NCBI GenBank assembly: GCA_022801925.1 | Contig: JAAWTG010000003.1 | Span: 20,611 to 84,610, forward strand | Source: Clostridia bacterium | GTDB taxonomy: Bacteria; Bacillota; Clostridia; RUG12999 | DNA: 64,000 nt | Reading direction: 5' to 3' | Shown here: positions 5,915 to 49,489 of the stretch, piece by piece | Position numbering within the stretch: position 1 is the first letter of the stretch | Layout: every line of letters begins with the position of its first letter | Translations under genes and position numbers: made by a program | The notes under the pieces: generated by a model | What the model was told of the DNA's origin: nothing | Seen by the model: only the letters and a program-made list of their open reading frames with translations | Database searches by the model: none

Positions 5915-5958
5915 GAAAAAATGCACCGTTCTCTATTGAGAACGGTGCATTTTTGATA
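5915..5958. terminator. Bidirectional rho-independent terminator between the convergent kinase and ABC-transporter genes
   Basis: Perfect hairpin AAATGCACCGTTCTC/GAGAACGGTGCATTT with T-runs on both strands. Confidence 0.75.
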
Positions 5959-6016
5959 GAATTTATAACGAAAAATCTTCTTATAAGCCTATATAAAGTG
6001 GTCTAGAAAGTATGGG

Positions 6017-6170
6017 TAGGCAAACAAAAATCGAATATATTTGCGCCGTGCAGAGAAATTTTTTCGTAAATACGCACCCGTGAACTGTTTTCCATACAAC
6101 TTCGTAGCACACGTACCCTCTAGGGCACACGTACGCCCAGTATTGCAAAGGAACCTTTTCCTTGCCTTAC
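6017..6170. repeat. Copy A of a short intergenic repeat family (cores GACAAACAAAARTCGAAT, CCGTGCAGRGAAAWTTTTTTGTAA, TTGTAAGGCAAGGAAAAG)
   Basis: Shares 17-30-nt blocks with 41594-41660 and 47497-47680, found by direct comparison. Confidence 0.4.
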
Positions 6171-35449: not shown

Positions 35450-36382
35450 ATGGGATACATTATATTTGGCATTTTTATTTTGATTGTGCTGTTCATTGTT
35501 TTTAATATCAAAATTGTACCGCAGGCAAATGCGTTTGTTGTAGAACGTCTGGGCGCATATAAAGCGACGTGGGGCGTTGGGCTGCATTTTAAGACACCGT
35601 TTCTGGAAAAAGTGGCAAAAAGAGTGTCGCTGAAAGAAATCGTGGTGGATTTTCCGCCGCAGCCTGTGATTACGGCAGACAACGTTACCATGCAGATTGA
35701 CACGGTTGTCTATTTTCAAATTACCGACCCGAAATTGTATACCTACGGCGTAGAGCGTCCGATGGTAGCCATTGAAAATTTGACAGCGACAACGCTGCGT
35801 AACATTGTTGGTGACATGGAACTCGACCAAACGCTGACGTCGCGTGATGTTGTCAACACAAAAATGCGTGCAATTTTGGACGAAGCGACAGACCCATGGG
35901 GTATTAAAATCAACCGTGTGGAACTGAAAAACATCATGCCGCCGGCGGAAATTCAAAACGCCATGGAAAAACAAATGAAAGCGGAACGTGAACGCCGTGA
36001 ATCTATTTTGAAGGCGGAAGGAGAAAAGAAATCCGCAATTCTGGTGGCGGAAGGGGAAAAAGAATCTCAGATTTTGCGCGCAGAAGCGGAAAAAGAAGCG
36101 CAAATCCGCCGCGCAGAAGGGGAAGCGGAAGCCATTCGTAACGTCCAGAGAGCAACGGCGGACGGTATCCGTATGCTGAAAGAAGCGGCGCCGAGCAATG
36201 AAATTTTGATTCTGAAAAGCTATGAAACCATGGAACAGGTTGCAAACGGCAAAGCGACGAAGTTGATTATTCCTTCCGATATGCAAGGCATGGCAGGTAT
36301 GGCGGCGTCTTTGGCGGAAATCTGGAAAGACGGCGGTAAACCGGAAGTGAAAAAGCCGGCTGCACCACAAATAGAACAATAG
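35450..36382 (+). CDS. SPFH/band-7 (stomatin/flotillin-like, FloA-type) protein
   Basis: N-terminal TM helix, SPFH domain, and a C-terminal EA-rich coiled coil (AEGEKKSAILVAEGEKESQILRAEAEKEAQIRRAEGEAEA). Confidence 0.8.
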   Translation: MGYIIFGIFILIVLFIVFNIKIVPQANAFVVERLGAYKATWGVGLHFKTPFLEKVAKRVSLKEIVVDFPPQPVITADNVTMQIDTVVYFQITDPKLYTYGVERPMVAIENLTATTLRNIVGDMELDQTLTSRDVVNTKMRAILDEATDPWGIKINRVELKNIMPPAEIQNAMEKQMKAERERRESILKAEGEKKSAILVAEGEKESQILRAEAEKEAQIRRAEGEAEAIRNVQRATADGIRMLKEAAPSNEILILKSYETMEQVANGKATKLIIPSDMQGMAGMAASLAEIWKDGGKPEVKKPAAPQIEQ

Positions 36383-36436
36383 GCGAAACCTGTCTACAAA
36401 AAAGGTAAGCCGCTAAAGTGGCATAGAGATTGATGC

Positions 36437-36478
36437 AAAAAGCCCTGATATCATATTTTATGTGATATCAGGGCTTTG
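36437..36478. terminator. Bidirectional rho-independent terminator between the SPFH gene and the convergent EAL gene
   Basis: Perfect 14-bp hairpin AAGCCCTGATATCA/TGATATCAGGGCTT with T-rich flanks on both strands. Confidence 0.8.
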
Positions 36479-36622
36479 GTATTTATATAGAAAGTCAATC
36501 GTTTAGATGAAACCAATCTATAAACGATATTCTCTCCCCAAAAGGCACACACGACTTTGAGGGGAGGCGTGTGCCTGAAAAACCTGTATGTACTGTTGAA
36601 GGTATTCTAAAAGAATATGCAG

Positions 36623-38527
36623 CTACTGCCTATGCTCTTTTAAAAATTTTTTCGCCTCCTTCAGCGGCAAAGCGCGGGAATAGTAAAATCCTTGAATGAG
36701 GTCGCAGTCGGTGCTTAGTACCATTTTATTATGTTCTTCCGTTTCGACACCCTCGCATAGAACGGTGATATTCATGCTGTGTGCCAAGCGAATAAGTCCG
36801 TCCAGCAACATTTTTCCGCGGCTGTCCATAGCGTTTAGAACAATGTCCCGTTCCACTTTCACGTAATCTATTGGATAATGATAGAGGTCAGATAGAGAGG
36901 AATAGCCGCTTCCGATATCATCCAAAGCGATTAGAAATCCAAGCGCCTTACATTTTTGCAGATTTTCCTGCAAAAGTTTCGGATTGTGTGACCGGGAATC
37001 TTCTGTAACCTCAATGATAAGGTGACTGTGGAGAAAAGCGTAACGTTCAGCAATTTCTTTGATATGGTTTGAAAAATCCGGTGCAGTAATGGAATAGCGG
37101 GTGAAATTACAGGATATAAACATATGACCCAAACCGTCCTGTTCCCATTTCGCCAGTTGTTTACATACCTGCGAAAAAATATAGTAATCGTGCGCTGTTA
37201 CAGCGCCGGTTTGGTTCATGAGTTCAATATATTTTGACGGCGGCAGCAATCCTTCTTGCGGATTTTGCCATCTGGATACCGCTTCTGCGCCGTATATTTC
37301 ACCTTTTCGGTTGACAATATATTGCAGATATAACTGAAATTCACCGTCCTTGATTGCCTGCGTGATACGGTGATGCAGGCGTTCATTCTGATGTGTTTCC
37401 GCGACGAGGGTTTGCGTGCTGAAAGAAAAGTTCAGTTTGTGACCCACTGCGTGGAGATATCCTTGTTTTGCGTTGTAGAAAGCGGATTCGCTGTCACAGT
37501 CCATGTTTTCTTCCAGCGCACAAACGCCGGCGGAAAAGAGATTCGTATATTCACTTTTGAATTGACTAAGATAGACGTCCAGTTCGTCCATGATACGCTT
37601 GATTCGTTCTTCTGCCTTTGGTTTATTGCTGCTTTGATAGAGAAAAGCAAACACGCCGGCATTTACCAATGCAAGATATTCTGCGGCGCCGGTTTTTTGA
37701 TTTAAAAATGCTGCCACATACTGCTGAACCGTTTGGGTTTCGCTTCCGCCGTACCGCCGGTTGAAGGTTTCTTCATCAAAGGAAATATAGGCAAGATAGT
37801 ATAGACTTTTGCTTTTATCGGAAATAAGATTGTCGTAGCAATAAATGTAATATTTATCATTTCCGATACCATATTGGGGATGTATCATCAGGTCGTCTTG
37901 CGCAGCTTTCCGCTTTCTCCCAAAATGGATTGCCAGCACCGTCGCTGTCAGCAAAACAACTGATAAAATACCACCTAAAACATATACAAACAATATATGG
38001 ATTCGGTTCACGCCGCCGTATTCCCTTGTATAGGACGAGAGAAACGTAAGTTTTTGTTCCGCAGATATCTCGGAAAACGCAGCGGAAACCTTTGATACGA
38101 TTTCTTCAGAGGCAATGTTAGAAAATGCAAAACAGACCCGCCGCTCTCTGCCGTCAATCGTAATGTTGGAAACGAACTGCGGCGTCTTTATATACTGCTC
38201 GTCAATCGCTTCCTCCAAATAGGCGGATATGATATCTGCCTGCCCGTTTTTTGCCAGACGCGCCTGTGCATGGGGACTGCTATCCTCCAAATACTGAAAA
38301 GTATAACCGGTTTTTTCAGAAATCACCGCATAAAGCTGCGGCATGAGACCGGCAAACTGTCCGCTCTTATCGTCATAATATTCTATCGGATACATATCGG
38401 TGTTTCCTGCCACATAAACGGTGGATTCTGAAGCAAACGAATGAACAGCAGCAAGAAACATAGAAAGCACGATAATACAGATATAGATACATATGGTTCT
38501 GACGAGCCCCATGTTACGGTTGTTCAT
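36623..38527 (-). CDS. Membrane-anchored sensor protein with a periplasmic domain, a degenerate GGDEF-like region and an EAL c-di-GMP phosphodiesterase domain
   Basis: C-terminal EAL motifs (LIALDDIGSGYSSL, DYVKVERDIV, QGFYYSRALP). Start chosen at MNNRNMG, which has a GGTGGA RBS. The longer ORF extension overlaps the upstream gene out of frame. Confidence 0.8.
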   Translation of the reverse strand: MNNRNMGLVRTICIYICIIVLSMFLAAVHSFASESTVYVAGNTDMYPIEYYDDKSGQFAGLMPQLYAVISEKTGYTFQYLEDSSPHAQARLAKNGQADIISAYLEEAIDEQYIKTPQFVSNITIDGRERRVCFAFSNIASEEIVSKVSAAFSEISAEQKLTFLSSYTREYGGVNRIHILFVYVLGGILSVVLLTATVLAIHFGRKRKAAQDDLMIHPQYGIGNDKYYIYCYDNLISDKSKSLYYLAYISFDEETFNRRYGGSETQTVQQYVAAFLNQKTGAAEYLALVNAGVFAFLYQSSNKPKAEERIKRIMDELDVYLSQFKSEYTNLFSAGVCALEENMDCDSESAFYNAKQGYLHAVGHKLNFSFSTQTLVAETHQNERLHHRITQAIKDGEFQLYLQYIVNRKGEIYGAEAVSRWQNPQEGLLPPSKYIELMNQTGAVTAHDYYIFSQVCKQLAKWEQDGLGHMFISCNFTRYSITAPDFSNHIKEIAERYAFLHSHLIIEVTEDSRSHNPKLLQENLQKCKALGFLIALDDIGSGYSSLSDLYHYPIDYVKVERDIVLNAMDSRGKMLLDGLIRLAHSMNITVLCEGVETEEHNKMVLSTDCDLIQGFYYSRALPLKEAKKFLKEHRQ

Positions 38528-39008
38528 TTTGACATCCACCCTTTTCAATCTTTTTTCGAGTGACCGGAGAAAAGTGTTGCGGTTCTGAAAGCACCTCACT
38601 TTTCTCAGACAAATTATCACCCAATATATCAAGTAATTGCTGAATGCTATCGCGTACATCATGGATACCGGCACTGCATTCACGGATTCGTTTTTGCAGT
38701 TCATGGGCGCATTCCAGATTTTTTTCCAGAAACTTTGCATTTTCAGCATTTGCTTTTTGCTTCAATTCTACTGCATACATTTTTGCATCGGTCAACACTT
38801 CCGCCACACGGTCGCGTTCTGCATAAAAAGCTGCGTTTTCCTGCTCAAGCCGTGCAATTTTTTTATTGAATTCCTGCACTGCCTGTTCGTGTGCTGTTAT
38901 GGTATCCATCATTTTCAGGGAAAATTTTTCGTTCATTTTTGCGATATATTCACATATATCGCTTTTTTTATATCCCCAAAATCCCTTTTTCAAACGTGTA
39001 ATATCCAT
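38514..39008 (-). CDS. DivIVA-domain coiled-coil protein (GpsB/DivIVA-like)
   Basis: N-terminal LKKGFWGYKKSDICEYIAKM matches the DivIVA N-terminal pattern (K.F..RGY...EV..FL..V), and the rest is coiled coil. RBS GGAAAGGAGA. Confidence 0.6.
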   Translation of the reverse strand: MDITRLKKGFWGYKKSDICEYIAKMNEKFSLKMMDTITAHEQAVQEFNKKIARLEQENAAFYAERDRVAEVLTDAKMYAVELKQKANAENAKFLEKNLECAHELQKRIRECSAGIHDVRDSIQQLLDILGDNLSEKSEVLSEPQHFSPVTRKKIEKGGCQNEQP

Positions 39009-39054
39009 AAAAATCTCCTTTCCGATTTTTCGGTATCATAGCCGGACACGCTTT

Positions 39055-40458
39055 TTAATGCAACTTGATTTTTTTGCGTTCAATACGACCCCATTGTGTT
39101 TTCTTTTTGCGATAGCCAATAAATGCGGTGGAGCGTACCCAAGCAAGGATAAACCGCAGACAGGTTAATTCAAAGAAACATAGTAAGACAGCCTTGACAC
39201 CGTCTATAAATGAAATTTTCATATCTGTTGTATAGAGGCGTGAGAAGAATGCCGAAAGCGAGAGGATGGAACTGAATCCGGCATATATCAGGAAAAACAG
39301 AATCATAAACGGAACATGCAATAAACCGGTTGCCCACGCCAAAAGCATAGTGATAACGCCAAATATTTCAATAAACGGTGAAAACAACTCATAAATCAAA
39401 AAGTATAAATAGGATATGAAACTGACTGCACCGAATTTGGGATTGGAAAACATTTTACGGTGCGCAAACATGCTTTGAAACAATCCCAAATGCCATCTTT
39501 TACGCTGGCGGCACAAATCACGCAAGTTTTCGGGTACTTGTGTCCAGCAGATGGCATCGCTGGCATATCGAATACTGTAGTTGATATGGTTCATGGTACA
39601 ATATTCATGCAACTTGACCACCAATTCCATATCCTCGCCGATTGTTTCATTGCTATAACCGCCCGCCGCTATGACTGTCTCTTTTTTGAACAGTCCGAAC
39701 GCACCGGAAATGATAAGAGAACCGTTGAATTTATCAAACAGAATTCTGGACGCCAAAAAAGAACGGGCATATTCTAAAACTTGCATACAAGCCAAGATAT
39801 TACGCGGCATACTATATTTTTTGAGCCGTCCGTTTTCCAGTTCGACTGCATTGGAAATGCGCACCATACCGCCGACGGCAACCACATTATCATTTTCCAG
39901 AACAGGTTGTGCAATGCGGCGCAGGGAGTCATATTGCAGAAAAGAATCGGCGTCAATACAAATAAAATACGGAAATGTGGAGGCATTAATACCCATATTC
40001 AGCGCGTCTGCTTTTCCGCCGTTTCGTTTACGAATGAGCGTCAGCGGTACCTTTTGCAAGCGGGACTCATAGACAAATTCTTCCGGCTGACAGGGAAGTT
40101 GCCGGCGTATCGGACAGTGAACGGGGCGCATGTCAAACGCTTCAATTAACTTTTTGGACATATTGTCTGTGGAACCGTCGTCTACTACAATAATCTCATA
40201 GGAGCGATATTCAAGCTGCAAAAGAGATTTGACGTTTTCCACCACAGTAATTTCTTCATTATAGGCAGGTACGATAATGGTAATCGGAACATAATAGTCC
40301 TGCGGGAGAATGTTTTTCATCAACTCACGCCGACGGAGTTTATACAGTTCAAGAGAGCCGACAACAAGCGAGATAAAAAGGAAGGTTGAATATCCAATGA
40401 GATAGGCGATAAAGAAATAGCCGGTCCAATCCAAGAATACTTTAAGCGTGTCTAACAT
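39055..40458 (-). CDS. Processive family-2 glycosyltransferase / polysaccharide synthase (PgaC/IcaA/NodC/HasA-like)
   Basis: N-terminal TM pair, DDGSTDN, DAD, QRKRW (QxxRW) motif, and 3-4 C-terminal TM helices. The start overlaps the upstream gene's stop (ATGTTAG). Confidence 0.85.
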   Translation of the reverse strand: MLDTLKVFLDWTGYFFIAYLIGYSTFLFISLVVGSLELYKLRRRELMKNILPQDYYVPITIIVPAYNEEITVVENVKSLLQLEYRSYEIIVVDDGSTDNMSKKLIEAFDMRPVHCPIRRQLPCQPEEFVYESRLQKVPLTLIRKRNGGKADALNMGINASTFPYFICIDADSFLQYDSLRRIAQPVLENDNVVAVGGMVRISNAVELENGRLKKYSMPRNILACMQVLEYARSFLASRILFDKFNGSLIISGAFGLFKKETVIAAGGYSNETIGEDMELVVKLHEYCTMNHINYSIRYASDAICWTQVPENLRDLCRQRKRWHLGLFQSMFAHRKMFSNPKFGAVSFISYLYFLIYELFSPFIEIFGVITMLLAWATGLLHVPFMILFFLIYAGFSSILSLSAFFSRLYTTDMKISFIDGVKAVLLCFFELTCLRFILAWVRSTAFIGYRKKKTQWGRIERKKIKLH

Positions 40459-41570
40459 ATGGATGCATCCTCCTTTTCTGCGCGTATCATATCACGAACA
40501 TCAAAATGGTACCGGAGAATTTCGGAGGCGTAGCGGTCATGTCCTTCCAAAACATCAATCAAATCCAGATAAGTCAATCCCAGCCGTTCAAGACTTTGCG
40601 CGGAATTGAACCGGATATGCCAGTTGCGGTGATGTAAATTTGATTTTAAAATTTCCACTGTTTTCTCTGCAGGGTAGGAAGCCAAAACAGAAGATGCTAT
40701 AGCGGCATATTCCCAGCGCATATCGGTTCTGCTGTTCGCATAAAGCAATAAATATTCATATGCCGGTTCATAGCGGTATTTACCGAAATAGCGAATACAG
40801 GCAAACCGGAGTTCATCGTCCTGCGATGTATCCTTCATAAGCCGCAGGATATCTTCGCAATGGTCTCCTGAGCTAAAGCGGAAATAGTTCAGCAGCGTGA
40901 TTTGCATCTTACGCGAGAAATCCTCAAATGTTTCCCAAAGTGCAGCGTTGAGTCGTTGCGTATTACCTGCGAAATTTAATAATCCATCCGCCAACAGTTT
41001 GCTATGATAGACTTTATTTTCATTGTCTATGATTTTTAATGCTTTTACAATGCAAGAAGCGTCTCTGGTAGTATAGAGCGCCTGCATAGCGTTTTCCCTG
41101 CAATAGATGCTCGGTTCATGGAGAAGCCGGAACAACATATCAATCATAGCGTCAAACGGACGGTCTGCCAAAATTCTATATTTTTTGATGATATATGGGA
41201 AATATGCCGCTTCCATAGAATCTTTTTTGCAATATTCGATAGAAAGAGATACAAACACACTGCCAATGGAATAGAGATATTTTCGGACAAGCATTGGATT
41301 TTCAAGATGTTTTTTTTCAAGCGCTGCATCAAAAGCACGCATGTTGCTGATGCGTTTGAGTTTTCCGGAAAGATAGTTTTTGTGTGCGCTGTGCACAGCA
41401 CTGTGCGTTTCCAGCCATATCAGTTCACTGCGGATCCTGTCCTCAAAACCATTGCTGACCCGAAGAATCCTTTTGTCCCTGCGGCGGGAGAGGAATGCAC
41501 TGATGATATTAAATAAAATCATGCCAACGCATATGACAAGATAGACATAAATCATTTTTTCTATGTTCAT
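40452..41570 (-). CDS. Hypothetical membrane-anchored alpha-helical repeat protein (HEAT/TPR-like), unknown function
   Basis: Single N-terminal TM helix followed by about 330 aa of predicted helical repeats. RBS GAAAGGG before MNIEKM. Translationally coupled to the GT2 gene. Confidence 0.5.
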   Translation of the reverse strand: MNIEKMIYVYLVICVGMILFNIISAFLSRRRDKRILRVSNGFEDRIRSELIWLETHSAVHSAHKNYLSGKLKRISNMRAFDAALEKKHLENPMLVRKYLYSIGSVFVSLSIEYCKKDSMEAAYFPYIIKKYRILADRPFDAMIDMLFRLLHEPSIYCRENAMQALYTTRDASCIVKALKIIDNENKVYHSKLLADGLLNFAGNTQRLNAALWETFEDFSRKMQITLLNYFRFSSGDHCEDILRLMKDTSQDDELRFACIRYFGKYRYEPAYEYLLLYANSRTDMRWEYAAIASSVLASYPAEKTVEILKSNLHHRNWHIRFNSAQSLERLGLTYLDLIDVLEGHDRYASEILRYHFDVRDMIRAEKEDASIC

Positions 41571-41593
41571 TGTGAGAACCCTTTCTTTTGGTG

Positions 41594-41660
41594 AGACAAA
41601 CAAAAGTCGAATCTCATGCGGTCACTGCATGGCGCAACCATATTCGACTTTCGTTTGCCT
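41594..41660 (-). repeat. Intra-operon hairpin / short repeat copy (AAAGTCGAAT...ATTCGACTTT followed by a T-rich run), between the glycoside-hydrolase and helical-repeat genes
   Basis: 10-bp stem with a nested CATGC..GCATG stem. On the minus strand it is followed by TTTTGTTTGTCTC. The 27-nt 3' half recurs at 47497-47525 and a variant at 6017-6037. Confidence 0.45.
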
Positions 41661-41672
41661 ATCCGCGTACTG

Positions 41673-43844
41673 CTATGACCATAATTGTTGCAGCATATAA
41701 TAGGAACTTTTCAGGCGTTCATGATAGCTTATCTGGTTGCCCCAGCCTTTCAGTTTGAAAGAGGAGAACGGTATCCGACCGCCGGAATTACCATCTGTCA
41801 GTGCGAAATACAGTTCATTGATTTTGATATAGTCTATACCGTAGTTGCCGCTGTAATAATCATCATGAATCATCATACGAGACGGATCGGAGAAATTCAA
41901 AAGCTGCCACGGCAGTTTCAGTTCAATATAGTCTCCACTGCAGATATAGTCGGCGAGAGAGTCAAACGCCGGACTAGACGGATTGGCGTTGCCATATTTG
42001 AGTTTTCCGGTCTCAAAGACCTCTGAGTTTGCCAAATTATCGTTATAGAGAAGTACCGTAGCGGTTTGCAGAATCATCTGAATCGGCAGGAAACGTGGCG
42101 AGTCAATATCAGGTATGTTGCTTGCGATATAAGTATCAAAATCATAAGCTTGCAGTGCATAGGTTGAACGCAGCGATTCATAACGTTCCTGCACCAAAAC
42201 ACGGCTGTTTTCTCTGCCGTGCAGCACAATTAAAAAATCTGCTGCACGGTCTAATAAAAGATTTTGTTCCTTGCAATAAAGGCTGCCGCTTTTGGGCGTG
42301 ATATCCAAAGGAATATAAAGCGTATCGGTTTCGAGGTTGAGGTTCGGTTTGTGAATCAGGAAATAGAGGAACCGCTCATCATATTTTACAGAAAGGGACA
42401 TGCCGCCGTTTTGGACGACCAAATCCGATTCTGTCCATTCAGAAATATCTCCGTCCACATAGCAAACAGATTTTTCGGCGCCAGGGTCAAAGGATAATAA
42501 GCCAAAATATTGCTCGTTGGTCTGATAGTCCGACCAATAGGGCGTTCTTGTCAAATCCACTGCATACATCGTATTCCAGGTGCGTTTGAACCATTCATCC
42601 TGCCACGAAAATACACAGCAGCCGGCACAACCTGCCGCCATAATATCCTCATAACAGTCGATAAGCGCTTGACCCTGTTCCTGTTCGGACATGTTGCCCT
42701 GATTTCTTCCGGTGTTTGCATCCCTTTGCGCCATTCCGCGTCCGGTGGAAACGCCGAACTCCGAAATAACCACGGGCATGGTATGATGGGTTGTGAGCAT
42801 GGCAAGATAGGCGCGGTAGGTGCTGAGTTGCCCTTTTGCATTGATATATGCCGATTTATCTGCGATTCCAAACGGTGACCAATCGTCAATATAGGTGAGG
42901 TAGTCGGGATAATAGGGATATACATGGTAGGAGGCAAATTGTCCGGCAAGAAATGTGTCATAGGTTTTAATATGTTCCGCATTCACATAGGCACATTTCA
43001 TAAAGAAATTTTTGATTCGTTCAGGATATTCAAAAGGATCAGTGGTCGGCCAGTTGGAAAAGGCAATGAGTTTTTGCGTTTTATAGCGGCAAGATTCATA
43101 TTCAACCACTTTGTCGCCGACTTTACAAAGCAGCGTTTCAAAGGGAGAGGCGTCCTGCGTGGTATACATATATTTCCCTTGATAAGAGGTATAACCGTCT
43201 TTGCCCGCGTAAAGATCGTCTGTATAAGCAACCGTAAGGTCTTCCCACTCCACGCCCAAAATATAACCGATGACCCAAGAAGAGACGTCTTTTAGATAAC
43301 TGCCGGAACCGGCGCTTGATACACTATTCAGCGCAATTTTTTTATTGCCGTGTACGGCATCCAGCATAGTTTTGCAATCATTTAAAAAAGTATCATAAAA
43401 TTCCTTACTATAGGCATCGCGGTGGGAATTTTGTATGTAGTCGTTGACCCATACGCCGTGAATCAAATAGAGTGGGTCAGGATTGTTTTTATTATATTCG
43501 TAAAACGCCTTGTAAAAAACGTCCTGTTGAATGGTATAGATACGAATCGTGTTGGCGCCCATTTCTTTGATATATTGAAACCAGCGAAGATAGGTTTCTT
43601 TGTCGATTGCAAAATCGGTAGACCATGCGCCCGGCGCGCCGGAGCCAAGATTCACACCACGAATCTCAAAGGGTTCATACCCGTTTCCCTTGTCCATATA
43701 TATTTTATCGCCATCTGTTTTGACAAAGGTGGTAACTGCTTTGGCAGGCTGAAAATCAATATACCATCCGAGCCGGAAATAAATGGCGTCATAGACCAGA
43801 GCCAATGCTACAACAGATGACAAAATGATTAAAAACTTTTTCAT
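41673..43844 (-). CDS. Secreted glycoside hydrolase-like protein (TIM-barrel clan GH-A type, candidate exopolysaccharide hydrolase)
   Basis: Signal/anchor sequence, GVNLG...IKEMGANTIRIY, and a candidate nucleophile motif VVISEFG. 723 aa. Confidence 0.5.
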   Translation of the reverse strand: MKKFLIILSSVVALALVYDAIYFRLGWYIDFQPAKAVTTFVKTDGDKIYMDKGNGYEPFEIRGVNLGSGAPGAWSTDFAIDKETYLRWFQYIKEMGANTIRIYTIQQDVFYKAFYEYNKNNPDPLYLIHGVWVNDYIQNSHRDAYSKEFYDTFLNDCKTMLDAVHGNKKIALNSVSSAGSGSYLKDVSSWVIGYILGVEWEDLTVAYTDDLYAGKDGYTSYQGKYMYTTQDASPFETLLCKVGDKVVEYESCRYKTQKLIAFSNWPTTDPFEYPERIKNFFMKCAYVNAEHIKTYDTFLAGQFASYHVYPYYPDYLTYIDDWSPFGIADKSAYINAKGQLSTYRAYLAMLTTHHTMPVVISEFGVSTGRGMAQRDANTGRNQGNMSEQEQGQALIDCYEDIMAAGCAGCCVFSWQDEWFKRTWNTMYAVDLTRTPYWSDYQTNEQYFGLLSFDPGAEKSVCYVDGDISEWTESDLVVQNGGMSLSVKYDERFLYFLIHKPNLNLETDTLYIPLDITPKSGSLYCKEQNLLLDRAADFLIVLHGRENSRVLVQERYESLRSTYALQAYDFDTYIASNIPDIDSPRFLPIQMILQTATVLLYNDNLANSEVFETGKLKYGNANPSSPAFDSLADYICSGDYIELKLPWQLLNFSDPSRMMIHDDYYSGNYGIDYIKINELYFALTDGNSGGRIPFSSFKLKGWGNQISYHERLKSSYYMLQQLWS

Positions 43845-43865
43845 GAATCCTCCTAATGAAACTAC

Positions 43866-45341
43866 TTAGTTTGCGTTTTCGTTAAACTTTTTCACCTTTG
43901 ACCCAGCGGAATATTGCGTGATAGATTCTATGTTTTCATCCAGCCAGGAGCCTCTATACGAAATAAACCACTTGAGCTGCGCAAGACTTTCTTCATAGGA
44001 ACGTGGATTGCGTTCGATAGGTTTTAGCAAATCATGACTTTCTTCAAAGGAATACCCCCATTTTTCATAGTTTCGCGCTATCGCGGCACCTAAATACTCT
44101 ACAGTGCTGTCAATATAACGGCAAAGATAGTCCTCGCTGAGATAGGTTTGACGAAGTTCATGATAACGCTTGACACAACGTTTTGTAAAGTTTTCATCTT
44201 TTGTCAGCATAAAGTACCACAAACAATTTTGAAGTTCAAAATGTCCGGGCTGCATCATAGATTGCTGATAGTTGTCACAGGCAGAGTTAAAATCCCAAAT
44301 ACACATGCGGAACTTGCCGTCGATATCTTTATACATATAAGTGGATAACCAGCCGGCGTCGTAGTTACAGGTAAACTCATTTATGAGAAGATAGTCTACA
44401 AAAGAATCTACATCAATCAATTTTTCATACCCATATTGGTTATTGTCGTAATCATAGGAATAGAGTGATTTTTCAAAAGCGGAAAAATCTTGTTTGATTC
44501 CTTCCAATATTTTGGGCGTTAGATTGGGAGCGCCGGGATATACAATTTCCAATTTCAGATTTGTGCGGAGCGTATAGGTGGTAAAACTTTTCAGATGGTT
44601 CTGTTCCTCGTTGTCCGGACGGTCAAGTAACAATACATAGCCGGTAAAGGTATTATCTTTTGCATCGACAGTCAGATTTAGGCGACTTCCGTTTTTGCCT
44701 GCCGTAATGTTTTCAACCAATACATAAACGCCCATATATTCACCATCAAGGAGCAATTCACAAAAGCGTACATTGGGAGCGTAGTCCATAATCTCGCCGG
44801 CAATATTATACCACATATAATTACGAAGCAGTGTCTTGTCCAAAATCGGACCGTGCAGCACCCATTCATGATGGGCGGTCATTCCGATTAGACTTTGTGG
44901 ATTGTTTCCTCCTTTTTCATCAATCAGATTGATGCGATAGCCCAATTTATCATAGGTACGCGAGGAATTGCCGCGTACATGAATGGATATATCGCTGGTA
45001 ACAGCAGGAACATCAGTGGGATGGTTGTTGGTTGTTTTATTATCAAACACCGACAGCTTGGCACGGATTCGGTCGCTACCGTCAGCCGCGGTTGTATATC
45101 CGGTCGTTTTACCTTCTTCCACGATTGCCCTTCCGGGTATTTCCACACCGCCTGTATGAATGGTTATCAACGGTAAATGTGTGCAGAAGGTATTGTCCGT
45201 ATGGGGGCATGGTTGTTTCGGCTCTGCCTCCAAATGTTGATGATAGCGTCCGGTATCCGCAGTCAATAAAAGAGGCAAATTTATCGCAGAAATGAGCAGC
45301 ATGAGTGCACAGGCAATGATACCCCAAACTTTGTATTTCAT
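43866..45341 (-). CDS. CotH-family protein (atypical kinase fold), secreted or membrane-anchored
   Basis: N-terminal hydrophobic segment. 491 aa with CotH-like conserved blocks (RGNSSRTYDKLGYRINL, HEWVLHGP, YVLVENI). Sits in a CotH-DUF4956-VTC context. Confidence 0.6.
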   Translation of the reverse strand: MKYKVWGIIACALMLLISAINLPLLLTADTGRYHQHLEAEPKQPCPHTDNTFCTHLPLITIHTGGVEIPGRAIVEEGKTTGYTTAADGSDRIRAKLSVFDNKTTNNHPTDVPAVTSDISIHVRGNSSRTYDKLGYRINLIDEKGGNNPQSLIGMTAHHEWVLHGPILDKTLLRNYMWYNIAGEIMDYAPNVRFCELLLDGEYMGVYVLVENITAGKNGSRLNLTVDAKDNTFTGYVLLLDRPDNEEQNHLKSFTTYTLRTNLKLEIVYPGAPNLTPKILEGIKQDFSAFEKSLYSYDYDNNQYGYEKLIDVDSFVDYLLINEFTCNYDAGWLSTYMYKDIDGKFRMCIWDFNSACDNYQQSMMQPGHFELQNCLWYFMLTKDENFTKRCVKRYHELRQTYLSEDYLCRYIDSTVEYLGAAIARNYEKWGYSFEESHDLLKPIERNPRSYEESLAQLKWFISYRGSWLDENIESITQYSAGSKVKKFNENAN

Positions 45342-45375
45342 CTATTTACCTCCTGCATTGTTTTTTGAACATGGT

Positions 45376-46053
45376 TTAATTTGACACTTCATCGTTTTGC
45401 ATGACGATGTTTACATATTCGACATTTCCAAGCGCGTAGATACCGGCGGTGATATCGGGCGTTTGTTTTTCCGCTTTTTGCAGCATTTTTTGTGTTAGTT
45501 CGTAGATAAGTTCCACGGTGTCTTCTGTCGTGTTTTCCACGCGGAGAACCGCCTTTGTATGGAATATCTTATAGATTTGCGCTTTAATAGGCGCCTGTTT
45601 ACTACGCGCGGCACGCACGATAAGCAGCATTCTATGGTCGTTTTTAATGAAGCCAAGTACTAGAATCACAAAAAAGGTAACTGCACTTCCAATACCTGCC
45701 ACAAGATAATCGCCTACACCACAGCAGATACCGACAATGATAGTCCAAAAAATGTATACCGTATCCCGCGAATCTTTAATAGCAGTACGGAACCGGACAA
45801 TGGACAGCGCGCCAACCATTCCGAGCGACAATGCAATATTGTTGCCGATGACTGTCATAACAGTGCTTGTCAGCACTGTTAGAATCGTGAGAGAAGCATT
45901 AAATTTTTTACTATAGATAGTGCCGCGGTGAGATATGTAGTAGGAAATGAAGATAAACAATCCAAGTGCCGCCGCCGTCGCAATATTCATTAGAATTTGT
46001 TCAGCAGTCATGTCGCTGGGATTGGTAAATAGGTTATATATTTTTTCTTTCAT
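45376..46053 (-). CDS. DUF4956-family membrane protein
   Basis: Four TM helices followed by a soluble C-terminal domain. Typical genomic partner of VTC-domain and CotH proteins. Confidence 0.6.
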   Translation of the reverse strand: MKEKIYNLFTNPSDMTAEQILMNIATAAALGLFIFISYYISHRGTIYSKKFNASLTILTVLTSTVMTVIGNNIALSLGMVGALSIVRFRTAIKDSRDTVYIFWTIIVGICCGVGDYLVAGIGSAVTFFVILVLGFIKNDHRMLLIVRAARSKQAPIKAQIYKIFHTKAVLRVENTTEDTVELIYELTQKMLQKAEKQTPDITAGIYALGNVEYVNIVMQNDEVSN

Positions 46054-46067
46054 ATATTGATAACTCC

Positions 46068-46775
46068 TTATAATCTCGTTTGATACCCATTTTGGCGGGC
46101 AAGCACATATTTACTGACAGATAATTCGCTACGGTTCACGCTGTTTATCATACGGCGGATATAATCGAGCAGAAAGCCGTTGAATTTCACTTCCATAACC
46201 ACGTTAAATTTGTCCAGCACCGGATTCATATTAAGATATGGCGCAAACAAATCAAAATTGCTTTCCGTAGCCACAATATTGCTGTCAAAAGTAATACGGA
46301 TTTTATTCTCCTTTGCAATGAATGCTTTGCGGTGATATTGTACGATTGTTTTAGGACGGTAACAGCGAGTATTCATGAGCGCATAACATTCGGCTGCAAA
46401 GCGCTCTTTGTAATGCAGAAGAGGGGAATAATCGCCTTTGGTAAGCGCTATGGCTTCTTCACGCGATATCTGCAAAGAACGCTTAAGTTGATACGCACCT
46501 TGTTTTTGTTTCATCTCAAGCATAGCAAAATGAGAATTTGAGTCATAAATACGCAGCCTGATTTTGCGCCTTGTTTCTATGCCGGAAATCTTTTCAAAAT
46601 AGTCTCTGTCATATATTGTATCAAAATATAGTGAGCGAATCACATATCCATGCGTTCCATTATGTATATCTTCTGACATTACTTGGCTTAACATGTGGCT
46701 CTTTTCGAGAAATTCATCAACGTTTATTAAGAACTTTTTTTCTTCTCTGAAAACTTTGTTCAATCCTACCATCAT
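46068..46775 (-). CDS. VTC-domain protein (polyphosphate-polymerase-like triphosphate tunnel fold)
   Basis: SLYFDT motif and about 235 aa, matching bacterial VTC-domain proteins. First gene after the riboswitch leader. The RBS AGAAGG abuts ATGATG, so the exact start is uncertain. Confidence 0.6.
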   Translation of the reverse strand: MMVGLNKVFREEKKFLINVDEFLEKSHMLSQVMSEDIHNGTHGYVIRSLYFDTIYDRDYFEKISGIETRRKIRLRIYDSNSHFAMLEMKQKQGAYQLKRSLQISREEAIALTKGDYSPLLHYKERFAAECYALMNTRCYRPKTIVQYHRKAFIAKENKIRITFDSNIVATESNFDLFAPYLNMNPVLDKFNVVMEVKFNGFLLDYIRRMINSVNRSELSVSKYVLARQNGYQTRL

Positions 46776-46781
46776 CCTTCT

Positions 46782-46822
46782 AAAAACAAAAAAACTGACT
46801 GCAATTTAAACTTGCAGTCAGT
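46782..46822 (-). terminator. Intrinsic terminator forming the expression platform of the leader riboswitch
   Basis: Perfect 11-bp stem ACTGACTGCAA/TTGCAGTCAGT with a 7-nt loop, followed by TTTTTTTGTTTTT, ending 6 nt before the RBS. Confidence 0.8.
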
Positions 46823-46829
46823 CAATCAT

Positions 46830-46898
46830 TCGAATTTATTCGGTTAGACACTTAACTTTGCGTCCCCGCTTTTCAACAGGTTTGCCTAATATTCATTT
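46830..46898 (-). promoter_or_regulatory. Candidate c-di-GMP-I (GEMM) riboswitch aptamer
   Basis: Minus strand reads ...TTAGGCAAACC TGTTGAAAAGCG GGGACGCAAAG TTAAGTGTCTAACC... This reproduces the GEMM-I conserved blocks GGCAAACC, a 12-nt hairpin with a GAAA tetraloop, and GGGACGCAAAG, with the same 12-nt spacing as the Vibrio cholerae Vc2 aptamer. Confidence 0.55.
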
Positions 46899-46904
46899 CT
46901 TAAA

Positions 46905-46933
46905 ATTGTACTATATTTAATGGGAGTTGTCAA
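46905..46933 (-). promoter_or_regulatory. Sigma-A promoter TTGACA-17-TACAAT driving the riboswitch leader and the VTC-to-EAL operon
   Basis: Consensus -35, a 17-nt spacer and a near-consensus -10 read on the minus strand. Confidence 0.65.
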
Positions 46934-47040
46934 CCATTATTTTCAATTTACTGCCTTTGATAGAAAATATTTATGATTCTTTTCTTTGTAGAGTATAGTG
47001 TTGTATAGTCCGCAGAGAGGAAAATAAAAATGAACTGCGA

Positions 47041-47090
47041 TTTTAAAAGCAAAATAAACCCCCTGCAACCACTATGGTTACAGGGGGTTT
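47041..47090 (-). terminator. Rho-independent terminator downstream of tRNA-fMet
   Basis: AAACCCCCTG...CAGGGGGTTT 10-bp stem followed by ATTTTGCTTTT on the minus strand. Confidence 0.8.
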
Positions 47091-47093
47091 CAT

Positions 47094-47170
<77 letters not shown>

Positions 47171-47176
47171 ATATAT

Positions 47177-47265
47177 TGGTGCCGGAAACCGGAATCGAAC
47201 CGGTACGGGAGTTTCCTCCCACAGGATTTTAAGTCCTGGGCGTCTGCCAGTTCCGCCATTCCGGC
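47177..47265 (-). tRNA. tRNA-Leu (UAA)
   Basis: 89 nt with a long variable arm, anticodon loop CTTAAAA, a GTTCGATTC T-loop, and an encoded CCA end. Confidence 0.85.
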
Positions 47266-47287
47266 TTATATGCCTTCTAACAAGATA

Positions 47288-47316
47288 ATATTACCATAAA
47301 AATTGATGTTTGTCAA
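47288..47316 (-). promoter_or_regulatory. Strong sigma-A promoter for the tRNA pair (TTGACA-17-TAATAT with an extended-10 TG)
   Basis: Read on the minus strand about 22 nt upstream of tRNA-Leu. Confidence 0.6.
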
Positions 47317-47418
47317 TAGGTTTTGCCAAAAATCTTTTTGACTACCAGTTATGTCACTATTTTAGCTGTAGTTTAGTATATGTAAAAAACGGAAAAATAT
47401 GCATTGTCTGAGGATATC

Positions 47419-47458
47419 TTCTACTCTCCAAAAGGCATAGATGCCTTTTGGAGAGTAG
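47419..47458. repeat. Perfect 18-bp inverted repeat CTACTCTCCAAAAGGCAT-AG-ATGCCTTTTGGAGAGTAG
   Basis: Read directly. No adjacent U-run on either strand, so it is not an obvious terminator. Confidence 0.5.
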
Positions 47459-47496
47459 GAATCGGAAAAAGTTTTGTATAGCATATATCTAGGTTA

Positions 47497-47680
47497 GACA
47501 AACAAAAGTCGAATCTCATGCGGCCTCCCAGAAGCAGATTTTTCCGTATGCTGTGCTAGAAATACCCCACATACACTAGTATTTCTGCGTATTTTTTCCT
47601 TGCCTACAGAAAATTTGCACCTAGAGACTTCATAGAACCGTGCAGGAGAAAATTTTTTGTAAGGCAAGGAAAAGCCTTTT
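47497..47680. repeat. Copy B of the short intergenic repeat family. It includes an internal 15-bp inverted repeat TTTTCCTTGCCTACA / TGTAAGGCAAGGAAAA.
   Basis: Shares GACAAACAAAAGTCGAATCTCATGCGG with 41594-41622, and shares CCGTGCAG..AAATTTTTTGTAA / TTGTAAGGCAAGGAAAAG with 6046-6170. Confidence 0.4.
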
Positions 47681-47826
47681 TTGCCTAGGAAAAGCTGATA
47701 TTGCACATTTGGCAATATCAAATATTGAGGATGAGGCGCAAATATTGTAGATTAGTGAAATGGTAGAAAAAATGAGGGTTTCGGAGGGGTGCGCAAAAAA
47801 TGTATATCAAACGTAAATATGGCTTC

Positions 47827-47856
47827 TTGCAATAATTGCTGACCTGATGGTATACT
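47827..47856 (+). promoter_or_regulatory. Candidate promoter TTGCAA-18-TATACT (TG-extended) for the sugar ABC transporter operon
   Basis: Read in sequence about 45 nt upstream of the substrate-binding-protein RBS. Confidence 0.4.
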
Positions 47857-47902
47857 GAAAACAAATCAAAAACAGCGCAATGCAAAAAAGGGAGGAATTA
47901 TA

Positions 47903-49489
47903 ATGAGTTGGAAAAAAGCAGTTGGTTTAGGTGTTGCAATTTGTATTGCAGGTACAACATTTTTGACAGGTTGTACATCATCGGAAGGCGGCAACACGTC
48001 GGTAGAAAATATGGAGTTTCCATTAAAGGAATCTGTCACTTTAACGTATTGGATGCCGCTAAATGCATCAGTCAGCAAAAATCATAGTAACATGAATGAC
48101 ACAAAACTTTATCAAGAGTTGGAGAAACGGACAGGTGTCAAAATGGAATTTCAGCATCCGCCACTTGGACAAGAAAAAGAACAATTTAATTTGATGGTTG
48201 CGTCCAATGAACTACCGGATATCTATGAGTATGATATGCTGTTGTATCAGGGTGGTGCACAAAAAGCATTAGATGATGAAATTATTATTCCATTAAATGA
48301 GTTGATGGAAAAATATGCACCGAATCTGACAGCAGTGCTAAAACAAAATCCAGAATGGGATAAAAATGTAAAAACAGACGATGGTACATATTTCACATTT
48401 CCGTTTATTCGAGGAGATGACCGGCTGCGTGTATATGCAGGGGCAATGCTGCGCCAGGATTGGCTGGATGAACTGGGACTTTCCGTACCGGAAACCATTT
48501 CGGATTGGGAAACGGTACTCACAGCATTTAAGGAACAAAAGGGTGCAACAAATCCGTTTTCATTCGAATTAAAAAAATTTAAACTATATAACATAGTAGC
48601 CGGTGCGTATGGTGTGGCAAATGATATGTTTTTGGATGATGACGGCACGGTACAGTTCGGACCGATGATGCCTGCTTATAAAGAATATCTAACGACACTC
48701 AAACGCTGGTATGACAAAGGTTTACTGGATCGCGATTTTGCAACTAGCGATGGAGCGGCTGTGACATCTAAAATCACAACCGGAAAAGCGGGCGCTACAG
48801 TTGGCGGTTCCGGAGGGAATTTAGGAAATTACATGAATCTCATGAAAAACCAAGATAGCAAATTTAATCTTATGCCGGCACCATATCCGACATTGAATCA
48901 AGGAGAACGTCCGAAATTTGGGCAAATTGATCCTGCATCAGGACAAAACGCATTTATTTCGCCCATGTGTAAGCAGCCGGAACTTGCTGTGAAATACTTG
49001 GACTATGGATATAGTGAAGAAGGGCATATGCTGTTTAATTTCGGTATAGAAGGACAGAGTTATACCATGCAGGATGGTAAACCGATTTATACACAAGAAA
49101 TCAGCAATCATCCGGCGGGGTGGGGATTTGCAGAATCTCTTACGCAGTATGCAAGAGCAAGCAGCAACGGTGCGTTTGTGCAGGATTATGATTATATTGA
49201 ACAATATTGTTCTTTGCCGCAGCAGCAGGCAGCAATCAATATTTGGTCGGATACAGACGCAAAAAAACATGTTATGCCGCCCGCAACGCCGACGACGGAA
49301 GAATCGCAGCGTTATGCACAGTTGATGGCTGACATTGATACCTATTGCGAGGAAATGTATTTGAAGTTTATTCTGGGCAGCGAAAGTCTGGATAAATTTG
49401 ATGCGTATGTGCAGCACATCAAGGAGATGGGTATTGAAGAAGCGATTAAAATTCAGCAGGAAGCAGTAGGACGATATAACCAACGTTAA
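47903..49489 (+). CDS. Extracellular solute-binding lipoprotein, family 1 (LplA/YtcQ-like oligosaccharide-binding)
   Basis: Lipobox LTGCTSS, 528 aa, followed by LplB/LplC-type permeases. Confidence 0.85.
   Translation: MSWKKAVGLGVAICIAGTTFLTGCTSSEGGNTSVENMEFPLKESVTLTYWMPLNASVSKNHSNMNDTKLYQELEKRTGVKMEFQHPPLGQEKEQFNLMVASNELPDIYEYDMLLYQGGAQKALDDEIIIPLNELMEKYAPNLTAVLKQNPEWDKNVKTDDGTYFTFPFIRGDDRLRVYAGAMLRQDWLDELGLSVPETISDWETVLTAFKEQKGATNPFSFELKKFKLYNIVAGAYGVANDMFLDDDGTVQFGPMMPAYKEYLTTLKRWYDKGLLDRDFATSDGAAVTSKITTGKAGATVGGSGGNLGNYMNLMKNQDSKFNLMPAPYPTLNQGERPKFGQIDPASGQNAFISPMCKQPELAVKYLDYGYSEEGHMLFNFGIEGQSYTMQDGKPIYTQEISNHPAGWGFAESLTQYARASSNGAFVQDYDYIEQYCSLPQQQAAINIWSDTDAKKHVMPPATPTTEESQRYAQLMADIDTYCEEMYLKFILGSESLDKFDAYVQHIKEMGIEEAIKIQQEAVGRYNQR

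Follow-up and report, generated by a model that had tools for sequence, protein, structure and literature searches.

Riboswitches of class I that respond to cyclic di-guanosine monophosphate (c-di-GMP) have been known since 2008, and OFF-type representatives exist among them, e.g., that in the C. difficile flgB leader (Cd1). The element described here is a class I riboswitch found in a 64,000-nucleotide (nt) stretch of DNA from an uncultured gut Clostridia bacterium (contig JAAWTG010000003.1, positions 20,611 to 84,610 of the forward strand), called hereafter the window, whose own coordinates are used throughout. It lies on the minus strand, in the leader of an operon of eight genes, and very probably acts as a transcriptional ON switch.

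Several described systems resemble parts of this locus. Vc2 of Vibrio cholerae shares with the window leader the two-hairpin aptamer with the GGCAAACC...GAAA...GGGACGCAAAG core, the GAAA tetraloop with its CUAA/AUG receptor, and the nucleotides equivalent to G20, C44, A47, G83, and C92. Of these, G20, A47, and C92 contact the ligand, G20 touching one of its guanines, while C44 and G83 form an interhelical pair (PMC4744006, PMC5888326). Unlike Vc2, the window leader has no recognisable long closing helix P1, its intrinsic terminator, of the Gram-positive kind, directly overlaps the second hairpin (P3), and the genes that follow are different ones. Bc2, located upstream of cap in Bacillus thuringiensis, is an ON switch both in vitro and in vivo, in which c-di-GMP leads to an antiterminated conformation and read-through; it controls a single collagen-adhesion gene and its terminated product is ca. 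121 nt long (PMC4933901). In both Bc2 and the window an intrinsic terminator adjoining an open reading frame (ORF) comes immediately after the class I aptamer, and the predicted window leader is ca. 110 nt long versus ca. 121 nt. The window riboswitch, in contrast, is predicted to control an eight-gene polymer locus with a phosphodiesterase of its own. It is a genuine but ordinary member of class I, the logic of its expression platform having already been demonstrated for Bc2 (PMC4933901). The class I OFF switches, Cd1 and also Bc1 of the B. cereus group (discussed in PMC11218506), belong to the same aptamer family and likewise use intrinsic terminators in Firmicutes, but in them the ligand favours termination through a separate alternative helix, whereas in the window the aptamer and the terminator share a strand. 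The window switch is predicted to be opposite to them in sign because of this sharing.

The operon itself also has described relatives. NELoc-2 of necrotic-enteritis Clostridium perfringens comprises genes for VTC, a membrane protein annotated as 'tubulin/FtsZ', CotH, a 685-amino-acid (aa) hypothetical protein, a 377-aa HEAT protein, and a 466-aa 'chitin synthase' (PMC2879425). This is the gene set and order of the window operon (36623-46775, minus strand), the 'tubulin/FtsZ' protein being of the DUF4956 type. NELoc-2 differs in that it was described with a sigma factor of the extracytoplasmic-function type upstream, no riboswitch being mentioned (PMC2879425). The trio of CotH, polyphosphate polymerase, and DUF4956 is, moreover, a recognised companion of Gram-positive pel exopolysaccharide loci (PMC7112168). 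The CotH/VTC/DUF4956 trio is common to these loci and the window, but they carry PelF/PelG rather than the family-2 glycosyltransferase (GT2) synthase of the window operon.

The leader comprises the following parts:

46905-46933, minus strand: sigma-70/SigA-type promoter (TTGACA 46933-46928, 17-nt spacer, TACAAT 46910-46905)
46810-46896, minus strand: c-di-GMP-I (GEMM-I) aptamer, positions 1-87 of the Rfam model RF01051
46865-46880, minus strand: first hairpin of the aptamer (P2 in Vc2 nomenclature), CCUGUU-GAAA-AGCGGG, with a GAAA tetraloop of the GNRA type, from the RF01051 alignment
46816-46857, minus strand: second hairpin (P3), with the internal loop UCUAAC / AAUGA, the tip CGAA-UAAA-UUCG, and the 3' strand ACUGACU (46822-46816), from the same alignment
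46782-46823, minus strand: intrinsic terminator, with the 5' arm ACUGACUGCAA (46822-46812), the loop GUUUAAA (46811-46805), the 3' arm UUGCAGUCAGU (46804-46794), and a U-tract reaching 46782
46780-46775 and 46763-46761, minus strand: ribosome-binding-site (RBS)-like GAAGGA and probable TTG start of gene 1, from homologue lengths and orthologue starts

The order of promoter, aptamer, terminator, and gene start (46763) is that of a transcription-termination riboswitch, as the original prediction had it, and its sigma-A promoter is likewise present on the minus strand, matching the consensus at 11 of 12 positions and being the top promoter-like site in a 12-kb scan (36000-48000). From the usual distance between the -10 box and +1, transcription would start at ca. 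46898. The leader, which begins ca. 7 nt past the -10 box, reads AAAUGAAUAUUAGGCAAACCUGUUGAAAAGCGGGGACGCAAAGUUAAGUGUCUAACC on the minus strand, and its blocks follow one another there as UUAGGCAAACC-UGUUGAAAAGCG-GGGACGCAAAG-UUAAGUGUCUAACC.

Membership in the family is established by the covariance model. Both strands of the whole window were scanned against 4227 Rfam families at gathering thresholds, which gave three matches, two tRNAs and c-di-GMP-I (RF01051); neither c-di-GMP-II (RF01786) nor any other non-tRNA family was matched. The RF01051 match (46896-46810, minus strand) reaches 71.1 bits (E 6.1e-12; gathering score, 35) and covers all 87 model positions without insertion or deletion, a window coordinate thus being 46897 minus the model position. 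By this full-length match the leader is a member of the c-di-GMP class I family, in agreement with the GEMM-I aptamer claimed originally. A covariance model of our own, R1, built from 50 distinct orthologous leaders, scores the window aptamer at 92.7 bits.

In the aptamer, two neighbouring hairpins meet at the conserved GGCAAA / GACGCAAAG junction. The stem of the first, CCUGUU/AGCGGG, has six pairs, two of them G.U, and is capped by the GAAA loop at 46874-46871; G-C and C-G pairs (46885/46860 and 46884/46861) flank this hairpin and close it, and the RF01051 alignment shows the unpaired junction GAC and AA. The conserved blocks and the GAAA-capped 6-bp hairpin on which the original prediction was built are thus in place, and the distance from GGCAAACC to GGGACGCAAAG, given there as 12 nt, equals the Rfam consensus spacing. 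Two of its statements did not hold: P3, considered short, is of consensus length in the RF01051 alignment, and the tetraloop receptor, of which no canonical form could be recognised, appears at the receptor position in a near-canonical form. There the leader has CUAA...AAUG in place of the consensus CUAA...UAUG (more fully, UCUAAC...AAUGA for uCUAAg...uAuGa), and it differs from the canonical 11-nt tetraloop-receptor motif at two or three positions. All five key nucleotides of Vc2 have their equivalents, namely G 46886 for G20, C 46862 for C44, A 46859 for A47, G 46823 for G83, and C 46814 for C92; the mapping combines the RF01051 alignment with the Vc2/Vc1 numbering (PMC4744006, PMC5888326) and is inferred from the spacings 20 to 44 to 47 and 83 to 92. 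G at position 20 corresponds to the state specific for c-di-GMP, which the window aptamer is expected to bind. A plain minimum-free-energy (MFE) fold of the aptamer alone misses the lower helix of P3, and its stability relative to shuffled sequences is not significant (z = -1.15). Since thermodynamic folding by itself would not have identified the aptamer, it is the covariance model and the covariation that carry the argument.

The covariation comes from orthologous loci. A one-genome-per-species scan with the VTC-domain protein encoded by gene 1, a protein with thousands of relatives, yielded 80 related loci with 69-97% protein identity, from gut Oscillospiraceae, Lachnospiraceae, Acutalibacteraceae, and their relatives. 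The same aptamer is found directly upstream of the same operon in 66 of the 80, with R1 scores of at least 69 bits, and among 20 short orthologous loci Rfam RF01051 confirms 17 at the same coordinates, with 56-73 bits. When the Rfam structure was imposed on a MAFFT alignment of the 50 distinct leaders, standard pairs occupied 92.9% of the cells formed by the 22 aptamer base pairs, and changes on both sides were seen in 15 of these pairs (135 cells). None of 500 shuffles reached the observed values, and sliding the 3' partners by 1-3 columns left only 15-43% pairing. The first hairpin (helix 2) is paired in 97.3% of cells, with compensatory changes in all six stem pairs, and helices 3 and 4 of P3 in 88.8% and 92.8%, with eight pairs changed on both sides. 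As the covariation exceeds both the shuffled and the slid controls, selection is acting on the aptamer structure in this clade, a conclusion that does not depend on the Rfam score.

The direction of the switch follows from the relation between aptamer and terminator. The perfect 11-bp hairpin with a U7 tract before the RBS, described in the original prediction, was found at 46822-46794; its stem has 11 Watson-Crick pairs, to which 46823 adds a G.U pair as the twelfth, and its tail consists of U7 (46794-46788), G, U5 (46786-46782), and A, after which GAAGGA begins. The 3' strand of P3 (model positions 75-81, all 7 nt of 46822-46816) lies wholly inside the 5' arm of the terminator (46823-46812), and the same arm holds the equivalents of G83, which in Vc2 forms the interhelical pair, and of C92, the pairing partner of one ligand guanine (PMC4744006, PMC5888326). 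Formation of the aptamer thus precludes that of the terminator, and vice versa. Folding of the leader with and without the terminator, suggested along with the original prediction, leads to the same point: the computed energies are -15.4 kcal/mol for the aptamer fold and -28.3 kcal/mol for the terminator state (the terminator with two hairpin tips; the terminator hairpin alone has -17.0 kcal/mol), and the two folds are mutually exclusive. The unconstrained MFE structure of the full leader contains the terminator, and enforcing the aptamer reduces the terminator to a 4-bp GCAA/UUGC remnant, so that termination would be the default state and the ligand-locked aptamer would give read-through.

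This overlap is kept in the orthologues. With the orthologue terminator taken as the lowest-energy hairpin abutting a T-run in each of 64 leaders, it shares 3-7 nt with the 3' strand of P3 in 63 of them, the C92 equivalent being always included. The nucleotide at model position 79 is shared by the two helices and covaries with both its partners: the P3 partner, the shared nucleotide, and the terminator partner are U/A/U in 36 loci, C/G/C in 25, and C/G/U in two. Such a three-way covariation is the signature of two alternative helices, both of them maintained.

Because ligand binding and termination exclude each other, the leader is very probably a transcriptional ON switch, in which the aptamer prevents termination when c-di-GMP rises; the direction in vivo is presumed to be the same. 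Transcription from TTGACA-17-TACAAT would start at ca. 46898, and the 87-nt aptamer would emerge before the rest of the leader. In the absence of c-di-GMP, the lower part of P3, which is weakly stable, would be displaced, ACUGACU and the following GCAA would pair with UUGCAGUCAGU to form the 11-bp terminator, and RNA polymerase would stop in the U7GU5 tract, leaving a leader of ca. 110 nt. Binding of c-di-GMP at the junction, through putative contacts at 46886, 46859, and 46814 (the G20, A47, and C92 equivalents), would lock P3 and the contact of the GAAA tetraloop with its receptor; only the 4-bp remnant of the terminator could then form, and the polymerase would read into the eight genes.

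Several observations weigh against this mechanism. The terminator state is ca. 13 kcal/mol more stable at equilibrium, so that switching would have to be kinetic and to rely on ligand and tertiary energy absent from the folding model. No closing helix P1 is recognisable in the window, where only U-A, U.G, and A-U are possible, none of them conserved in the orthologues; the affinity could for that reason be lower than that of Vc2. Only ca. 12 nt of 5' leader are predicted to precede the G20 equivalent, the promoter and the transcription start are consensus predictions only, and the outermost pair of P3 (model positions 40-81) is mismatched in 28 of the 50 orthologues.

An OFF switch, in which binding of c-di-GMP promotes termination, has precedents in class I, among them Bc1 (discussed in PMC11218506), but is very unlikely here. 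It would need an antiterminator competing with both the aptamer and the terminator, whereas in the window the 3' strand of the aptamer and the C92 equivalent are themselves the 5' arm of the terminator, and the 13 nt between the end of the aptamer and the 3' arm of the terminator hold no separate antiterminator segment. The 4 bp left to the terminator once the aptamer has formed and the covariation of the two helices through their shared nucleotide also speak against it.

A further alternative is that induction of the operon is secondary, and that the terminated short leader serves as a trans-acting or decoy RNA, or that a control of translation or mRNA stability is added. In the default state the ca. 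110-nt leader would indeed be made constitutively from a strong promoter. R1, however, matches each locus exactly once, in every case ahead of the VTC gene and on the coding strand, and has no match elsewhere in 1.18 Mb of related loci; the aptamer thus always stands directly before the same operon, and the RBS lies outside any conserved pairing, which makes this explanation highly improbable.

The ligand could also be another cyclic dinucleotide, e.g., 3'3'-cyclic GMP-AMP (3'3'-cGAMP), as in GEMM-Ib, or the aptamer could be bispecific. This idea draws on the orthologues, 18 of whose 64 leaders have A in place of G at the G20 equivalent (loci L003, L043, L054, L055, L081, and L060-L080; e.g., L054 400-484), and on the G20A variant of Vc2, which binds both c-di-GMP and 3'3'-cGAMP (PMC6140456). 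The window aptamer, in contrast, has canonical A47 and C92 equivalents and, at 46886, G rather than the A that marks GEMM-Ib. In wild-type Vc2, which also has G20, binding of c-GAMP is weaker than that of c-di-GMP by a factor of about a million (PMC6140456). The operon, moreover, ends in an EAL gene, and its orthologues devoid of the riboswitch carry GGDEF genes. For the window a ligand other than c-di-GMP is thus most improbable, while orthologous riboswitches of the same operon may differ in ligand selectivity.

Departures from the common aptamer go further in three loci, L036 (9826-9913), L040 (9825-9913), and L051 (9825-9913), from Hominicoprocola fusiformis, Oscillibacter sp. MSJ-31, and a Clostridia metagenome-assembled genome. 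Their leaders, situated at the usual position upstream of VTC, have retained the hairpin capped by GAAA, the P3 3' strand, and a long terminator, but the binding core is rewritten to GGAAAAUC...UAUGCUGCAGGGCC as compared with GGCAAACC...GGGACGCAAAG; they score 26-38 bits with R1 and have no Rfam match at E<=1, and could be degenerate or of altered specificity. Such eroded versions are what could make the window element a decayed, non-functional remnant before a constitutive attenuator, an extremely improbable explanation for a copy that scores twice the Rfam threshold, has every conserved position intact, and belongs to the well-conserved, covarying majority.

In the loci without the riboswitch another tie to c-di-GMP is seen. 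Six of 11 such loci have a GGDEF gene just ahead of the VTC gene and in the same orientation; it was confirmed by Pfam in L005 (2917-4032) and L014 (8556-9968), and the motif is visible in the translation in L009 (8-2149), L010 (376-2517), L058 (2055-3713), and L061 (805-2502). These six loci link the operon to c-di-GMP independently of the riboswitch, and the adjacent gene, of the diguanylate cyclase type, looks like an alternative means of connecting the two. In L014 a candidate aptamer suggested by a loose sequence motif fell inside the GGDEF coding region and was rejected as a false positive. In L016 (ca. 5930-6075) and L027 (ca. 2250-2397) the upstream gene is a different one, and the leader, with hairpins and a T-run, gave no match to the c-di-GMP-I models. 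The sensor appears to be drifting in the sister lineages, through A at position 20 with possible bispecificity, through a rewritten core, or through replacement by an adjacent diguanylate cyclase gene.

The genes following the leader, with the hairpin behind them, are these:

46068-46763, minus strand: gene 1, VTC-domain (polyphosphate-polymerase-like) protein, 231 aa (PF09359, E 1.8e-42)
45376-46053, minus strand: gene 2, DUF4956 membrane protein, 225 aa (PF16316, E 4.7e-13)
43866-45341, minus strand: gene 3, CotH-family kinase-like protein, 491 aa (PF08757, E 6.9e-56)
41673-43844, minus strand: gene 4, 723-aa protein with weak glycoside-hydrolase similarity (GH72, E 1.7e-5, just below the cut-off)
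40452-41603, minus strand: gene 5, HEAT-repeat protein (PF13646, E 4.6e-10)
39055-40458, minus strand: gene 6, GT2 protein, 467 aa (QRKRW motif, profile and PDB matches)
38514-39008, minus strand: gene 7, 164-aa coiled-coil-like protein, without a family match
36623-38527, minus strand: gene 8, membrane protein with a degenerate GGDEF and an EAL domain (EAL, E 4.2e-57; GGDEF, 22.5 bits, below the cut-off)
36439-36477, no strand assigned: 18-bp hairpin, a bidirectional terminator between gene 8 and a convergent SPFH/HflK-like gene, from the terminator scan

The eight co-directional genes, separated by gaps of -14 to +69 nt, run up to the hairpin at 36439-36477, which is the probable end of the operon, and the riboswitch-led eight-gene operon of the original prediction is further supported by the conservation of gene order in the relatives. 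The order VTC-DUF4956-CotH-GH-like-HEAT-GT2-(small)-EAL is conserved, genes 1-6 and 8 keeping it in practically all related loci of sufficient length, while the small gene 7 is patchily conserved. The VTC protein had no match in the PDB sequence search, and gene 4 matched PDB sequences of glycoside hydrolases only marginally (GH2 catalytic domain, E 1.3e-3), which makes its glycoside-hydrolase-like assignment weak. The product of gene 6 scores 147 bits with the PgaC/IcaA model, below the model cut-off, and is similar to residues 310-438 of BcsA and to chitin synthases; judged by these similarities it is of the processive membrane-synthase type. In gene 8 the EAL domain carries the usual EAL signature motifs, which look intact, and the protein is, by its domain content, of the c-di-GMP phosphodiesterase type.

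Taken together, the genes suggest a synthase-type system for an extracellular or cell-surface polymer, which would be induced by high c-di-GMP, and the co-transcribed phosphodiesterase, by lowering c-di-GMP, may provide a negative feedback. Weighing against this assignment is that the function of the operon is read from domain names, with gene 4 weak and genes 2 and 7 uncharacterised. In the papers searched, which did not include the original GEMM gene lists or the Rfam full alignment, none connects CotH, VTC, or polyphosphate-polymerase genes to a c-di-GMP riboswitch, and the regulon assignment may be unreported. The chances are about even that in gut Clostridia the riboswitch marks a c-di-GMP regulon that is widely conserved and uncharacterised, i.e., a GT2-centred surface polymer system with VTC, DUF4956, and CotH and the gene set of NELoc-2, induced at the RNA level, limiting itself through its EAL protein, and equipped with a sensor drifting in sister lineages.

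To riboswitch biology as such the element adds nothing new, and its value is that of an annotation handle: through it, a conserved locus of eight genes without a known function gains a predicted regulatory signal (high c-di-GMP) and a predicted direction (induction). Uncultured Oscillospiraceae, Lachnospiraceae, and Acutalibacteraceae of the gut commonly carry this locus, whose homologue in C. perfringens is associated with pathogenicity. The VTC/DUF4956/CotH/GT2 system is suggested to be part of a sessile, matrix-producing programme, and the regulated locus and the sensor variants of the sister lineages are more noteworthy than the riboswitch itself.

The starts of three of the genes deserve comment. 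Most homologues of gene 1 are 231 aa long, and the orthologues start with TTG, GTG, or ATG at exactly the position of the window TTG; a start at either of the in-frame ATGs, 46775 or 46772, is less likely. Gene 5 probably starts at the ATG at 41570. The longest ORF of gene 8, from 38749, overlaps the 164-aa gene by 236 nt (38514-38749, minus strand), and the true start is likely the ATG at 38527, located behind AAAGGAGGA inside the end of gene 7, which would give a protein of 634 aa beginning with MNNRNMGLVR.

Upstream of the riboswitch promoter lie the genes for tRNA-Leu(UAA) and tRNA-Met(CAU) (47056-47265, minus strand), which end in a strong 16-bp terminator (47090-47056); as the tRNA genes are closed off by a terminator of their own, the leader has its own promoter. 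Before the tRNA genes, at 47316-47288 (minus strand), there is another good promoter-like site, TTGACA-17-TAATAT with TG. Among the orthologous loci, L064 (5795-5880) and L069 (9676-9761) have the aptamer ca. 240-330 nt upstream of the VTC start, compared with the typical ca. 60-80 nt, extra sequence being inserted between the riboswitch and the gene.

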